64,000 nt of DNA from a virus. Under the pieces are notes generated by a model. That model searched no databases and was not told the DNA's origin. It worked only from the letters and a program-made list of their open reading frames with translations. The position numbers and the translations under genes are program-made. This document shows positions 50,698 through 57,205 of this stretch, in pieces; within the stretch, counting starts at the first letter, position 1; every line of letters begins with the position of its first letter. The stretch spans positions 1-64,000 of the IMG/VR virus record IMGVR_UViG_3300042868_005641; one strand, given 5' to 3'.

Positions 50698-51795
50698 ATG
50701 AATTCGCCTAATGTCGGACTCTATATAAATTACGAAACCAGTCATTTATTAGAAAATCAATTTTCTCCAAATTGTAAAATATATCGAGATTATCTTGACG
50801 ATCAAGATCGTGATGTATTTTTAAAATCCACACATGATCAATACATTGCAGTTTTGACCATGTTTCCCTTTCATGACGGATGGGCAGATCAAATTAACCC
50901 ATTGATTGCTCGTTGTGATCATGTGTTTATAATCTGCACAGAAGTTTTACTTCCTATTGTTGATTTTATCCAAGCTCATGATCATCACAACATCACTTAT
51001 TATCTTTGTGGACATTTGAATTTTGAATTAAAACACAGTGCTGTACATCAGTACATGTATTGGTTTGATAACACTACAGATTTTTATCGTAACTGGCTTC
51101 CTGAACTGTTGCATAGACTACATCCGTTCGACACAAAAAGATCGAGTTTTGATATCTTATTAGGATCTCGACGAGAGCACAGAAATTTCATATTTGAGCA
51201 GGCAATAAAAAATCCCGCATCTTACGTTCTGACATATTTTAAAAATCTATTAAGTTGGAGACTGTTACAGCAATCTGAATGGGAACAGCAAGGAGTCAAG
51301 ATAAATCAAACTCCAAGTATCACAGTGGAGAAAGTTGAGTATTACGGACGTGAAATTAGTCTAAGTCAAATTATTCCGTTTAAGATTTATAATCAAACTG
51401 CATACTCTGTGGTTGCAGAAAGTGCTATACAAAATCACTTTTCACTGTTTTCAGAAAAAGTAGTCAAACCAATAATGGCACGTAGATTGTTTGTGATGTT
51501 TAGTGGAAAGGGATATCTAGCCAATTTAAGAAAATTAGGATTTCAAACATTTGGTAACATCATCGACGAAAGTTATGATGACTTGGATAACAACACTGAG
51601 AGATGGCAACATGCATGGGATCAAGTTGAGTGGTTAAATCAACAATCACAAGAACTTGTACTAGAAAAGATACGTCCAATTGTGGAACATAATTTTTCAG
51701 TTATGATGAATACAGATTGGTATGGAATATTTAGACAACAATTAACGCAGGACTTTATTAATAATTTAATTACTACAGGAAAACAAAATGCTTAG
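50698..51795 (+). CDS. GT-B/GT10-like hypothetical protein (paralog 3 of 4)
   Basis: YSVVAES...SEKVVKP...LFV...LRKLGFQTF..IIDESYD. Confidence 0.55.
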   Translation: MNSPNVGLYINYETSHLLENQFSPNCKIYRDYLDDQDRDVFLKSTHDQYIAVLTMFPFHDGWADQINPLIARCDHVFIICTEVLLPIVDFIQAHDHHNITYYLCGHLNFELKHSAVHQYMYWFDNTTDFYRNWLPELLHRLHPFDTKRSSFDILLGSRREHRNFIFEQAIKNPASYVLTYFKNLLSWRLLQQSEWEQQGVKINQTPSITVEKVEYYGREISLSQIIPFKIYNQTAYSVVAESAIQNHFSLFSEKVVKPIMARRLFVMFSGKGYLANLRKLGFQTFGNIIDESYDDLDNNTERWQHAWDQVEWLNQQSQELVLEKIRPIVEHNFSVMMNTDWYGIFRQQLTQDFINNLITTGKQNA

Positions 51796-52087
51796 AAATC
51801 CACGTGACCTAACCAACGAAGAAATTGAAGAATGCATTGACGGTAGCAGCGATGTCGGCATGATACGTGAAATTATCTCCATGGAAGATGTGTACAATGA
51901 AGATAGCACACACTTGCATGAAGAAAACTTTGCCACACGTTTTGCTTATGCAATCGAAGGCTTTATTGATGCAGATCCAGAAACCGAAGCCTGGTCCGAA
52001 GCATGGGATAACAACTACGAATGGGGCCTAAGCATTGCTGAAAATATCAATGATGTGTTGACCGTAGATGTTGACAGCACCGATTGA
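51788..52087 (+). CDS. Very acidic small protein
   Basis: 27 D/E against 4 R and no K in 99 aa; AGGA RBS. Confidence 0.7.
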   Translation: MLRNPRDLTNEEIEECIDGSSDVGMIREIISMEDVYNEDSTHLHEENFATRFAYAIEGFIDADPETEAWSEAWDNNYEWGLSIAENINDVLTVDVDSTD

Positions 52088-52099
52088 AACTGCTATAAT
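52071..52099 (+). promoter_or_regulatory. Perfect-consensus sigma70 promoter
   Basis: TTGACA-N17-TATAAT with TG extension. Confidence 0.9.
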
Positions 52100-52104
52100 T
52101 ACTA

Positions 52105-52291
52105 TGCATGGGCAAGGAGGTAGAGTAGCTCAATGGTGCTTGCGGGATAGATCTCTAACCCGGGCCTGCAGGCATCCGTGGCATGTGAGCGTAAGTCTTT
52201 AAGGTTGCGACTAAGACCTCGATTGAAAAATCAAAACCAGGCTGGTACCCTGGGAGTATGCCAAGAGGAATAATCTGGAAAGGATATGTAA
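52105..52291 (+). ncRNA. Candidate structured RNA (leader or ncRNA)
   Basis: About 190 nt with no convincing ORF after a consensus promoter; several helices, including a multi-way junction with a GAAA tetraloop. Confidence 0.4.
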
Positions 52292-52627
52292 ATGTCTATT
52301 GAAGTTGGGATCTCTGCGTCGAGCATGTCCGAATCACTCAATTCGCTTAAAGTAACGCCCTTGCCCATGCACCGTATTTTTGTGGAGATTGGCAGTACCG
52401 AGATTTGGTACAAGATCATTGCCGAAGCCAATCGTGAATTTGGTATTCGCGGCTGGAGCGGACAATCGGGTACCAAACGTCGGCTAGATCGTCAGAATCA
52501 CATGTGGCCGTCTGCACTCAAAACCACCATACGTGTGTGGTTTGACGTGCCTGATGAAAAGTTTGCCACTTGGATTGCTATAAAGTATCCAGTAACTGTT
52601 CTAGCACCACCGGCAACCAAAATATGA
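52292..52627 (+). CDS. Hypothetical protein
   Basis: AAGGA RBS; VWFDVPD..FATW motif. Confidence 0.65.
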   Translation: MSIEVGISASSMSESLNSLKVTPLPMHRIFVEIGSTEIWYKIIAEANREFGIRGWSGQSGTKRRLDRQNHMWPSALKTTIRVWFDVPDEKFATWIAIKYPVTVLAPPATKI

Positions 52628-53628
52628 AACTATATGAATCTTTTGTAAAATTTGACCACGTTAACAAAAGCTATGATGGCAAAACTCTGGTGGTACAAGA
52701 TCTATCTCTTGACGTTCGGCCAGGAGAATTTCTAACCTTGCTGGGCCCGTCAGGGTCGGGTAAAACCACTGCATTGATGATGCTGGCTGGATTTGAAAAT
52801 CCCACCGCCGGTGAGATATATCTCAATGGTAATCCTATTGTACACATTGCGCCCGAGCATCGGAATATTGGCATGGTGTTTCAGAACTATGCCTTGTTTC
52901 CGCACATGACTGTGGCTGAGAATATAAGATTTCCATTAAAGGTACGTGGTATAGTAGGCAACACCGCTAATGATAAAATTACTGCTATATTGAGCAAGGT
53001 AGGACTAACAGGGTTTGAGAATCGTCGGCCATCACAACTATCTGGTGGACAACAACAACGAGTGGCAGTGGCACGAGCATTGGTGTTTGATCCGCAATTG
53101 GTATTGATGGATGAACCATTGTCATCCCTGGACAAACAATTACGAGAACAATTGCAATATGAGATCAAAAATCTACATAGAGCAACAGGTATCACGTTTG
53201 TGTATGTGACACATGATCAAACTGAAGCAATGTACATGTCAGATCGCGTGGCAGTATTTCATCAAGGACGTATACAGCAAATTGGCACACCATCTCAATT
53301 GTATGAATCCCCGGCCAATATGTTTGTGGCACAGTTCATTGGCGAAAATAACATTATAAAATCTTTCAATAATCTACACAATGTTTGTGTTCGCCCTGAA
53401 CGAGTTCAACTCGACCCGGTTGATGCAGTTGATATACTAGTCAACGGCACTGTGCTCGATGTAACTTATCTAGGACGGTATATCCGCATACAGTTAGATT
53501 CATGTGGTCTTGACAATTTTACTGTGACCCTGGCAAATACTGGGCAACTTTTAAATTTGCAAGTTGGAAGAATAGTCAAACTAGGATGGAATTTTGCTGA
53601 TTGCCGCACATTCGCTCCAGCAGAATAA
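52624..53628 (+). CDS. potA: Polyamine-type ABC transporter ATP-binding subunit
   Basis: GPSGSGKT, FQNYALFPH, LSGGQQQR, LMDEP, VTHDQ, C-terminal TOBE-like domain. Confidence 0.85.
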   Translation: MKLYESFVKFDHVNKSYDGKTLVVQDLSLDVRPGEFLTLLGPSGSGKTTALMMLAGFENPTAGEIYLNGNPIVHIAPEHRNIGMVFQNYALFPHMTVAENIRFPLKVRGIVGNTANDKITAILSKVGLTGFENRRPSQLSGGQQQRVAVARALVFDPQLVLMDEPLSSLDKQLREQLQYEIKNLHRATGITFVYVTHDQTEAMYMSDRVAVFHQGRIQQIGTPSQLYESPANMFVAQFIGENNIIKSFNNLHNVCVRPERVQLDPVDAVDILVNGTVLDVTYLGRYIRIQLDSCGLDNFTVTLANTGQLLNLQVGRIVKLGWNFADCRTFAPAE

Positions 53629-53632
53629 ATTT

Positions 53633-54820
53633 ATGAGTTTGACTCAACATACCCGTGCGTATGCACTAATTGCGCCATTGCTGCTTTTTGTTGTTGTGAG
53701 CTTTATCCTTCCGCTTGGAATGATACTGGTCAACAGCATTTATGATCCTGTGATACCCAATGGATTACCTCGTACTGTATCCGCACTTGAAACATGGGAT
53801 GGTGCCCCGACTCAAGTTCCTCCTGAGCATGTGTATGCTGCGTTGGCACAGGATCTCAAACAAGCAGTTGAACAACAAAAAATTGGTTCAATTGCCAATC
53901 GATTAAACATTGAAGAACCTGGGTTACGCACCATCCTTACTAGGACTGCAACACAACTCGATTATCAAATTACAGGCCCATGGGCACCTGCATTTGAAGC
54001 TGTTAATCCTGCATGGGCTCGCCCAGAAATTTGGGGTACAATAAGAAATCTTTCATCATCTACCCATTTGTTGTTTTTCTTGTCTGCATTGGATTTACAT
54101 CAATTGCCCGACGGGACTGTGGCAAGGAAACCTGAAGATCAACGTATCTATATCAAGATCTATCTACGCACCTTGGGAGTAGCAGCAACTGTAACTGCAA
54201 TATGTATGTTGTTGGGATTTCCACTGGCGTATATGTTAGCGCACCTTAAAGAAAAAACAGCTAACATACTATTAATTTTGGTGTTGCTACCATTGTGGAC
54301 GTCGCTATTGGTACGTACTACAATTTGGATGGTAATGCTGCAAAAAGAAGGAATAGTAAATTGGCTGTTACAACGTTTGGACATTATCTCTAGCCCAATG
54401 CAGTTGATATTTAATCAAAGTGGAGTTATAATTGCAATGACGTATATTTTATTGCCTTTTATGATTTTACCTATGTATTCAGCGATGCGGCAGATTCCTG
54501 CACAGTATGTGAATGCAGCACGATCATTAGGAGCCAGTTCAGCAACTGCGTTTTTTCGTGTGTACTTGCCACAATGCATGACTGGTGTTGGTGCCGGTAT
54601 GCTATTGGTATTTGTTCTTTCTTTAGGATACTATATAACACCTGATCTGATAGGCGGGTCCACAGAACAAATGATCAGTTATTTTATAGCAGACAACATA
54701 GGCCGGTCCCTAAATTGGGGGCTAGCATCAGCCCTGTCTGTTATTTTACTTGCTGCTGTGTTACCGTTGTATGTGGTATATGATCGTGTGATTAGTAACA
54801 ATAGATTTAAAATTCAATAA
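53633..54820 (+). CDS. Polyamine-type ABC permease (PotB-like)
   Basis: LPLWTSLLVR, LPFMILP.Y, AARSLGA, YYITP.LIGG. Confidence 0.85.
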   Translation: MSLTQHTRAYALIAPLLLFVVVSFILPLGMILVNSIYDPVIPNGLPRTVSALETWDGAPTQVPPEHVYAALAQDLKQAVEQQKIGSIANRLNIEEPGLRTILTRTATQLDYQITGPWAPAFEAVNPAWARPEIWGTIRNLSSSTHLLFFLSALDLHQLPDGTVARKPEDQRIYIKIYLRTLGVAATVTAICMLLGFPLAYMLAHLKEKTANILLILVLLPLWTSLLVRTTIWMVMLQKEGIVNWLLQRLDIISSPMQLIFNQSGVIIAMTYILLPFMILPMYSAMRQIPAQYVNAARSLGASSATAFFRVYLPQCMTGVGAGMLLVFVLSLGYYITPDLIGGSTEQMISYFIADNIGRSLNWGLASALSVILLAAVLPLYVVYDRVISNNRFKIQ

Positions 54821-54828
54821 ACTATATC

Positions 54829-55644
54829 ATGCAAATTGTTGGAAAAATTTTACTTTATTTGATTGCTGCTGCGGTGTTGTTATTCTTGATTGCACCAATC
54901 CTACTAGTAATGCCATTGGCATTTACTCAATCGTCATATTTCCAGTTTCCAATTGAAGCATACAGTCTACGCTGGTTTGAAGAATTATTTAGTAGTCCAA
55001 TTTGGTTACATGCCATATACAACAGCATTGTGATTGCATTGATGTCTACATTACTAGCAGTATCTTTGGGCACATTGGCTGCAATGGGACTAAATCATAA
55101 TGACTTGCCGGGCAAACGTTTTGTCATGGCAGTTTTAATCTCACCAATGATTGTGCCAGTTGTGGTGCTGGCAGTTGGATCTTACTTTTTTTATTCTAAA
55201 TTGGGCATTGCTAACAATTTATTGAGTATTGTGTTGATTCATGCAGTGTTAGGCATGCCATTTGTGGTGATCACCGTAACTGCTGCACTGGCTGGATTTG
55301 ACATGAAACAAGTGTGGGCTGCACGTGGGTTAGGGGCATCTGCCTGGCAGGCTTTTTGTTATGTAATGTTTCCGGCAATTTGGCCAGGTGTGGTATCTGG
55401 TGCTCTATTTGCATTTGTTATGTCCTTTGACGAAGTAATTGCAGTATTGTTTTTGGGCGGGCCTGAGCAAACTACATTACCAAGACAGATGTGGGAAGGA
55501 CTTCGTGAGCAACTGTCGCCGACTATTCTTTCAGCTGCGTTCGTGATAATTTCTATAACCACAATTATATTGCTGCTAGAAACACTACGCCATCACAGAA
55601 CTGTAAAGTACACAGTCACTGTGCCATTATTACCTGGTAAATAA
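54829..55644 (+). CDS. Polyamine-type ABC permease (PotC-like)
   Basis: SLRWF, SPMIVP, AARGLGA, SFDEV, TLP. Confidence 0.85.
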   Translation: MQIVGKILLYLIAAAVLLFLIAPILLVMPLAFTQSSYFQFPIEAYSLRWFEELFSSPIWLHAIYNSIVIALMSTLLAVSLGTLAAMGLNHNDLPGKRFVMAVLISPMIVPVVVLAVGSYFFYSKLGIANNLLSIVLIHAVLGMPFVVITVTAALAGFDMKQVWAARGLGASAWQAFCYVMFPAIWPGVVSGALFAFVMSFDEVIAVLFLGGPEQTTLPRQMWEGLREQLSPTILSAAFVIISITTIILLLETLRHHRTVKYTVTVPLLPGK

Positions 55645-55648
55645 TCTT

Positions 55649-57205
55649 ATGTTTCTTAGTCTCATTACTTTAGCTGTGGCATTGAGCCTTAGCGTTATTG
55701 CTGCATATTACAGCATTGCTGGCCTGGCTGCTATATTTGCAGCGGCTGTGGTACCCATCATGATCATGGGATCTGTGCTGGAATTGGCCAAAGTTGTGGT
55801 CACATTGTGGCTGCATGAATACTGGTCACGCTGCCGCTGGTTGATGAAATTATATCTAGTACCGGCTGTGGGCATGTTGATGTTGATAACGTCAATGGGT
55901 ATCTTTGGATTCCTATCAAAAGCACACAGCGATCAAAGTCTAGTATCAGGTGACGTGATAGCAAAGATTGCTGTGTATGATGAAAAAATCAAGACTGAAA
56001 AGGAAAACATAGATGTTAGCCGTAAATCCCTTAAACAAATGGATGAAGCTGTGGACCAAGTTATGGGTCGTAGCTCAGACGAAAAAGGTGCAGACAAAGC
56101 TGTGGCTGTGCGCCGTGGCCAACAAAAGGAGCGTCAGCGCCTGCTTGCGGAAATTTCTGAAAGCCAAACACGCATTTCAGCACTTAACGAACAACGTGCC
56201 CCAATTGCCGCCGAAGTTCGCAAGGTTGAAGCAGAAGTAGGCCCAATCAAGTACATTGCAGCATTAATCTATGGAGACAATCCGGAGATTAATGTGTTAG
56301 AACGTTCTGTACGTTGGGTGATTATACTGCTGGTATGTGTGTTTGATCCACTGGCCATCATGATGCTGCTGTCTGCAACCGAAAGTCTCAAGTGGGCTCG
56401 TAAACCGCCAATGAAGGAAATATCCGAAGATGGGCACAAGACACCATGGTCTGAACCTGTAGTAGAAGAATATGTTAAATGGCCTGGGGGGTGTGGGCCT
56501 ACTGAAACAGTAGCAGAAAAAGAATTTGATATCAATGATCATCCGTACTTGTTTACACCGCCAGGGAATCGTACTCCGCCAGGCGTAGAACCTGCCCCAA
56601 TACAAGTATATCGGCCCAGCGATCCAGAACTTGATCCTTGCTATAAATGTGGTACACCATTGATGAATGCTCCGGGCATTGGTCCTTTTTGTCCAAATCG
56701 AGAATGTGATGTATCCGATGGACCATTCTTGCATGAACAGGAACCTATCAAAATCAAATATATTTCACCAACTGCTCATCTCGAAGATGAGCATGACGAA
56801 GATGAAAGTGTTGAGATCAAAAATGCCAAATCACAATGGAAAGCTGACAATCCTGGTGATACATTAAAACGCCATAGACGTTTGCTGGAAGTGGGAGTGA
56901 TAGATCAACTGCCGTGGATAACGTATCTGGACAAAGCGCCCGAATCAGGGTTTGGCAACGTGCTTCCTGAACACGGAAACAAGGGCGACACATTTATGTC
57001 CACCATTGGCATTCCACATCGACTGTACAAACACAATGGATTTGAATGGATCAGAATTGACAATACTCAACAAGATAACTATACTTACGACACAGCTTAT
57101 ATTGATCACTTGATCAGTCAAATTGATCAAGGATTGTATGATCCTGATCAACTGAGTGACAGCGAACGTGAACAGATTGAACAACGTATAACACAACCCA
57201 AATGA
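55649..57205 (+). CDS. Membrane protein with coiled coil and cysteine cluster
   Basis: Several N-terminal hydrophobic helices, coiled coil, VFDPLA helix, CYKC...CPNREC; TAAATA upstream. Confidence 0.6.

Follow-up and report, generated by a model that had tools for sequence, protein, structure and literature searches.

The window examined here is a 64,000-nt stretch of viral DNA, taken from the start of an IMG/VR viral contig of 77.9 kb, which was judged 22% complete and hence represents a fragment of a giant phage. Its + strand is densely packed with genes, and the long intergenic gap singled out in the original prediction is indeed present: 204 nt of non-coding sequence (52088–52291) separate an acidic 99-aa ORF (51788–52087) from a 111-aa ORF (52292–52627, + strand), referred to here as ORF111. 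A sigma-70 consensus promoter on the + strand (52071–52099) combines a -35 TTGACA (52071–76), a 17-nt spacer, a TGn element and a -10 TATAAT (52094–99). This TTGACA-N17-TATAAT arrangement scores 12/12 and is the only perfect match in the 64 kb, where shuffled sequence would be expected to yield 0.04, confirming its description as the sole perfect-consensus promoter. The promoter is retained together with the RNA that follows it, with TTGACA found in 79 and TATAAT in 82 of the 97 distinct upstream sequences of relatives at the same spacing, and across these 97 sequences the -10 hexamer ends exactly 6 nt 5' of an invariant GCAUG. Because of this fixed distance, and because invariance begins at the G of that motif (G1), the transcript probably starts at G52106. 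In three studies, metatranscriptome libraries yielded contigs that include the RNA, in several subtypes; these contigs run across the promoter as well and mark neither the start nor the level of the transcript. Other viral contigs encode homologues of the acidic 99-aa ORF (78% identity) and have neither the RNA nor ORF111 downstream, indicating that this upstream neighbor lies outside the module.

ORF111 encodes a basic, Trp-rich protein with 1029 homologue clusters, among the 120 listed of which no Pfam family appears; the protein has no match in Pfam, PHROGs and NCBIfam return only below-threshold matches, and matches in the ESM Atlas are to unnamed viral clusters. Nine of 12 homologues have a pI of 9–10. 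An AF2 model (pLDDT 69) adopts a ferredoxin-like fold whose structural matches are generic only (best Z 5.6), and a role for this basic, ferredoxin-like protein as an RNA-binding repressor is suggestive only. Several database gene calls for ORF111 homologues (P0044, P0047, P0055 and others) are 158 aa long versus ~106, likely a mis-annotation in which the ORF was extended upstream through the RNA by the open frame of that subtype. In related loci, ORF111 is followed within ~10 nt by a homologue of a 518-aa ORF and then by ClpX. In the window, the 518-aa ORF occupies 55649–57205 and has N-terminal TM helices, a coiled coil at approximately residues 108–207 and C-terminal Cys motifs, with no Pfam family. 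Hypothetical proteins similar to its residues 40–257 occur in Pelagibacter phage Mosig and in cultured giant phages; the matches include Xanthomonas, Salicola, Ralstonia, Stenotrophomonas, Flavobacterium and Microcystis phages, several of which exceed 300 kb in genome size. An ABC ATPase gene and two permease genes (52624–55644) are absent from all ~98 related loci, which indicates an insertion unique to the lineage of this phage; they are accompanied by no recognisable gene for a binding protein. Hence, of the proposal that the RNA is a leader for the downstream ORF and the ABC genes, only the part concerning the ORF stands, as the RNA lies upstream of it in 82 of 82 loci, and a polyamine or ABC-transporter riboswitch was rejected. 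Excluding this tempting reading and identifying the ORF111 calls that cross the RNA correct the annotation of the locus.

Relatives were collected by an ORF111 search of viral contigs, which returned 18 loci, and with a family profile, which returned 190; the 80 best of these were retained. A covariance model built from 16 sequences matches the window once (52106–52266, 166 bits) and finds the RNA directly 5' of the ORF in 35 and 47 loci, that is, in all 82 searched, at 81–171 bits. The distance from the end of the model to the AUG is 24–27 nt across these relatives. A strict three-part sequence pattern matched 96 metagenome contigs, with 77 true members among 80 checked, and the metagenome members come mostly from lakes and in a few cases from marine samples. 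Over 185,579 species genomes the same pattern gave a single match, in Parapedobacter, which we attribute to chance, and neither the RNA nor an ORF111 homologue was found in cultured phage genomes. Rfam 15 gave no match to the whole window at gathering scores, only chance-level snoRNA and S4 matches outside the element when 51900–52500 was searched at E up to 10, and no match to six diverse relatives at E up to 1. ARAGORN reported 0 tRNA genes in the window. The RNA matches neither Rfam nor tRNAs and falls outside all known families. It defines a large, uncatalogued family that has very good support and is abundant in viromes from lakes and in some marine ones, and its scale is indicated by the 1029 clusters of the associated protein and by the number of metagenome contigs that the strict pattern alone retrieves.

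Comparison of these relatives indicates that the structured RNA is real, larger than first drawn and folded differently. The single sequence folds no better than its own shuffles (z = +0.6); consequently, the evidence for structure comes from the relatives rather than from the window sequence, and the helices originally proposed cannot be judged from the latter. In an alignment of 64 distinct sequences (A6), in which the cells of helices P1–P4, hairpin H6 and a pseudoknot were scored, 96.6% of cells are paired, versus 82.2% in shuffles and 30–49% when the partners are slid. Two-sided changes are found at 20 of the 31 pairs, and the covariation score of 0.46 compares with 0.19 in shuffles (0 of 500 reach it) and with 0.06–0.10 in the slid controls. 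This abundance of covariation, together with the lack of an Rfam family, bears out the prediction of a novel structured RNA behind the consensus promoter.

The best-resolved part of the core, all of it on the + strand, is a long arm formed by P1–P4 (52123–52199) that is defined by covariation in A6. P1 (52123–26 with 52195 and 52197–99) emerged from an all-against-all covariation scan; its pair A52124-U52198 (A6 columns 20 and 117) is GC in 42 sequences, AU in 13 and UA in 9, with none unpaired. An initial P1 candidate, RRGA with UCYY, showed no covariation and was dropped when better partners were found. P2 (52128–31 with 52187–90) has changes on both sides at all 4 of its pairs, P3 (52133–36 with 52176–79) changes from G-C to A-U in 2 sequences, and P4 (52137–46 with 52165–74) has changes on both sides at 9 of its 10 pairs. 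Downstream of the arm, hairpin P5 (AGGUU/GACCU, 52202–06 with 52215–19) presents a loop with a near-invariant UG.GAC and is moderately supported by per-sequence folds and by the stem variants AGGA/UCCU, GAGG/CCUC and UAGG/CCUA. Hairpin H5 (GAUU-GAAA-AAUC, 52221–52232) is found in nearly every relative, mostly with a GNRA loop. It is misaligned between clades in A6 and was therefore judged from per-sequence folds, in which its stem varies from 4 to 7 bp (GAUC/GAUC, GACCUG/CAGGUC, UGGA/UCCA, GAUUCA/UGAAUC). Hairpin H6 (CCAGG-CUGGUAC-CCUGG, 52237–52253) is preceded by an invariant CAAAAC, and its pair A52239-U52251 (A6 columns 166 and 202) occurs as six pair types and is 98% paired. H5 and H6 had both been drawn in the original prediction, and both are supported by covariation. 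Finally, GGCA at 52180–52183 pairs with UGCC at 52259–52262 in a pseudoknot that is invariant except in one clade, where it becomes AGCA/UGCU (6 distinct A6 sequences and 13 of 77 metagenome copies); this switch represents one evolutionary event, and a terminal mismatch is present in 2 sequences. Some 40 unpaired RNA bases remain invariant while ORF111 drops to 43–50% identity, suggesting that the RNA is conserved more strongly than the ORF111 protein.

The pseudoknot corresponds to the GGCA/TGCC core of what had been drawn as an outer helix, but the cloverleaf-like four-way junction that this helix was meant to close is not supported. Its proposed arm GAG..GTCTT/AAGAC-CTC gives way to pairing of GUCUU with G-AG at 52123–25 in the relatives. 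Likewise, the relatives pair 52106–52117 with 52359–52370 and 52137–46 with 52165–74 in place of the suggested GCAAG/CTTGC helix (52112/52139), and the latter pairing also displaces CGGGATAG/CTAACCCG (52143/52155). A tRNA with an intron and a tRNA mimic were both rejected on the absence of ARAGORN and Rfam matches and of conserved D-arm letters: relatives do not conserve the D-arm-like UAGCUCAAUGGU, whose bases are part of P2 and P3.

Critically, the domain is closed by a helix that reaches into the coding region. In the window, GCAUGGGCAAGG (52106–52117, + strand) forms a perfect 12-bp helix, P0, with CCUUGCCCAUGC (52359–52370), which corresponds to ORF positions +68 to +79 within codons 23–27 of ORF111. 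Over 113 sequences, each position of this helix is paired in 88–98%, with 115 two-sided changes, and none of the 110 distinct sequences leaves the very first base unpaired. In a MAFFT alignment of 40 full-length sequences that was fitted to no structure, 97.9% of the closing-helix cells are paired, compared with 27–45% in slid controls, and 6 of the 12 pairs are changed on both sides; RNAalifold recovers the helix unaided. The invariance of GCAUG is explained by its facing the codons of the invariant Met26-His27, and pairing of the 5' end with the ORF leaves GUAUGCC free for the pseudoknot. An earlier closing candidate, GCAUG with UAUGC (52257–61), showed no covariation and had A.C mismatches in clade D, and better partners were found. 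The covariation pattern indicates a folded domain of ~265 nt (52106–52370) that encloses both the Shine-Dalgarno sequence (52280–84) and the start codon. The element covers the gap region to which it was originally assigned, but it ends 79 nt beyond the assigned boundary, inside the ORF. Such a design is unusual in that the first base of the transcript pairs deep in the coding region, with the whole initiation region held inside a knotted domain. Codons 14–18 of ORF111 (52331–52346) may form a further hairpin, CGAAU...AUUCG here and GAGUC-ACUU-GACUC in other clades, in which a synonymous GAA/GAG change is matched by AAU/GAC opposite and one large clade has an A.C mismatch.

The 3' tail (52256–52291, + strand) contains the pseudoknot strand GUAUGCC, of which GUAUGC is near-invariant in relatives, as well as UCUGG (52274–78) and the Shine-Dalgarno AAGGA (52280–84). 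Here the family divides into two types. Approximately half of the relatives carry CAGUG directly 5' of the Shine-Dalgarno, complementary to CACUG in the P5 loop, and every member of this type can form a 5–6-bp loop-tail helix. The type represented by the window has only an AGA/UCU tail match (weak, 3–4 bp) or a local hairpin, CCAAGA...UCUGG. The Shine-Dalgarno itself is not clearly sequestered by any conserved helix, single-sequence MFE folds of 14 members disagree on its pairing, and no conserved mutually exclusive helices were found. The motif GGAG, at which the T4 RegB nuclease cuts early mRNAs, occurs twice inside the RNA, at 52116–19, where most relatives keep it, and at 52253–56, where divergent relatives vary; the real Shine-Dalgarno is AAGGA.

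Coding explanations of the gap were also considered. The 32-codon ORF that might have been the conserved feature is not conserved, and with its ATG at 52104 it would begin before the point at which the transcript is inferred to start. A leaderless mini-ORF beginning at the invariant AUG (bases 3–5) was rejected, as its length ranges from 5 to 54 codons among the 110 distinct RNAs; in its codon 2, the third base is invariant while bases 1 and 2 vary. An upstream ORF starting at the AUG of AAUGG, behind an SD-like GGAGG, was rejected because some relatives have CUG or GCG in place of this codon, the bases of which form P3. A put-type antiterminator RNA was considered as well, but the element bears no resemblance to one and has no terminator downstream.

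In the window, the apical loop of P4 (52147–52164, + strand) contains two palindromes, Pal1 (AGAUCU, 52149–54) and Pal2 (CCCGGG, 52159–64). Across the family this loop is 17–18 nt long and features perfect palindromes, either one or two, at fixed positions. A set of 38 distinct loops comprises 34 with one or more palindromes of 6 nt or longer, 23 of them with two, and 4 that lack a 6-nt palindrome; palindromes cover 9.95 nt per loop versus 3.5 nt in shuffles. Pal1 occurs as AGAUCU, AUCGAU, UAGCUA, GUCGAC, UUCGAA, AUUAAU, AAAGAUCUUU, GAGAUCUC and CAAACGUUUG, the last being a 10-nt form from a marine copy, and Pal2 occurs as ACCGGU, CCCGGG, CCUAGG, CCUGGG, UCCGGA, CUCGAG and AUCUCGAGAU. At least 7 Pal1 and at least 6 Pal2 forms are all palindromic, and the substitutions among them keep self-complementarity. 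A hexamer palindrome is unable to fold on itself, and Pal1 and Pal2 are not complementary to each other. Pairing of Pal1 with H5, or of Pal2 with H6 or the 5' end, was rejected, as no co-variation of the loop palindromes with H5, H6 or the 5' end was seen in the alignment by eye. For these reasons, the simplest reading is that the palindromes mediate intermolecular pairing between two copies of the RNA; two such sites could possibly give rise to chains or rings. The loop has what would be expected of a kissing-loop site, namely a self-complementary stretch of at least 6 nt whose palindromy is kept through substitutions. If this self-pairing is real, the RNA would join a small group of natural RNAs from bacteria or phages that have quaternary structure, and would be the first of them with a direct tie to mRNA translation.

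The promoter, the knotted domain around the initiation region, the strict linkage and spacing to ORF111 and the self-complementary loops point to cis control of ORF111 translation, for which the ORF111 protein is the most likely effector. We favor this reading tentatively, at somewhat short of an even chance; the choice of the basic ORF111 protein as effector rests on analogy with the operators of S4, S15 and T4 gp32. As in an autogenous operator, the structure encloses the initiation region of its own gene, at a fixed distance from the AUG. Mechanistically, the stretch analysed is the 5' part of the ~265-nt domain, which comprises the leader and the first 27 codons of an early operon encoding ORF111, the 518-aa membrane protein and ClpX. 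A host-type RNA polymerase would start at the consensus promoter, and the first 12 bases of the transcript pair with codons 23–27. The closing helix formed in this way surrounds the four-helix arm, three hairpins and the pseudoknot together with the start codon and the ribosome-binding site. The closed, knotted fold would limit ribosome entry to ORF111, and an effector would set how often it opens, most likely the ORF111 protein acting on its own leader (autogenous control). Each translating ribosome would have to unwind the closing helix, and pairing of two RNA copies may contribute to control.

Palindromic loops are, to our knowledge, not a feature of autogenous operators. We also considered a self-associating mRNA domain, in which the palindromes join leaders into dimers or higher assemblies early and thereby set translation of the ClpX operon, with or without a protein or metabolite. 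This appears possible but doubtful; if the self-assembly reading were true, giant phages would have a novel type of RNA switch that senses concentration. A related reading, which we consider unlikely, makes the RNA primarily a self-assembling or trans-acting molecule that forms dimers, chains or rings through its loop palindromes and serves as a scaffold, a decoy or an RNP with ORF111, its position in the mRNA being secondary. This reading draws on the very strong, early-type promoter, on palindromes whose co-variation preserves self-complementarity in at least 12 different sequences, and on their apparent independence from H5, H6 and the 5' end. Natural RNA homo-oligomers have also been documented for phage-associated RNAs (PMC12286853, PMC7357161). 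It is weakened by the 4 of 38 loops without a 6-nt palindrome and by the fact that no terminator or processing signal separates the RNA from the ORF, and inclusion of the first 27 ORF codons in the fold ties the domain to the mRNA.

Other readings assign the fold a ligand or no regulatory role at all. Small-molecule aptamers and ribozymes more typically have many invariant junction bases than protein operators do, and the domain is conserved, structured and aptamer-like, with covariation support. It combines a multi-helix junction and a pseudoknot with the ~40 invariant unpaired bases, is of a size typical of complex aptamers and directly precedes a Shine-Dalgarno. A riboswitch, in which the junction bases bind a small molecule or ion reporting host state and binding shifts the fold at the ribosome-binding site, nevertheless seems distinctly improbable to us: the RNA accompanies only one gene family in one phage lineage, the strict pattern has no real match among the species genomes, no conserved mutually exclusive helices were found, and the downstream genes give no metabolic hint once the polyamine/ABC link is recognized as an insertion artefact. 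Constitutive stabilization has only a slim probability. Here, burial of the triphosphate end in the 12-bp helix would shield the early mRNA from host or phage RNases without regulation, which is consistent with the invariable pairing of the first base and with the stabilizing effect of 5'-terminal helices on bacterial mRNAs such as the ompA leader. However, a simple 5' hairpin would suffice for this purpose, leaving seven further helices, the invariant junction bases and the palindromic loops unexplained.

The closest parallels are the E. coli alpha-operon/S4 and rpsO/S15 operators and the T4 gene 32 leader, in each of which a pseudoknotted 5' leader lies at the ribosome-binding site of the first gene, the product of that gene is a small basic protein, and the RNA is strictly linked to the gene. 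Unlike these operators, the RNA described here is much larger (~265 nt, ~9 helices), pairs its first base with codons 23–27 and has palindromic loops; it is related to them neither by sequence nor by family. In its tail, the element resembles riboswitches of the SAM-II/SAM-V and preQ1-II type, in which a segment beside the Shine-Dalgarno pairs back into a core loop and unpaired core bases are highly conserved, but it differs from them in having no Rfam match and a single associated gene and in being several times larger. The phi29 pRNA is likewise a phage RNA of similar core size whose transcription is driven by a strong early promoter and whose multimers form by loop-loop pairing. However, pRNA uses two different complementary loops and is a free RNA of the packaging motor of small podoviruses, whereas in T4-like giant phages the present RNA forms the leader of an mRNA.

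With respect to the P4 loop, the HIV-1 DIS offers the nearest comparison: it also presents self-complementary, purine-flanked hexamers in an apical loop, whose sequence drifts while palindromy is kept, so that the loop palindromes of the phage RNA evolve like retroviral dimerisation sites. OLE, ROOL and GOLLD are natural RNA homo-oligomers, and ROOL and GOLLD are also phage-associated (PMC12286853, PMC7357161). The present RNA differs from the DIS and from all three in placing two palindromes in one 17–18-nt loop and in that its dimer is only predicted, and from ROOL and GOLLD in being far smaller and part of an mRNA. As a kind of element, the structured mRNA leader is already known; what is new is the closing geometry and the double palindromic loop.
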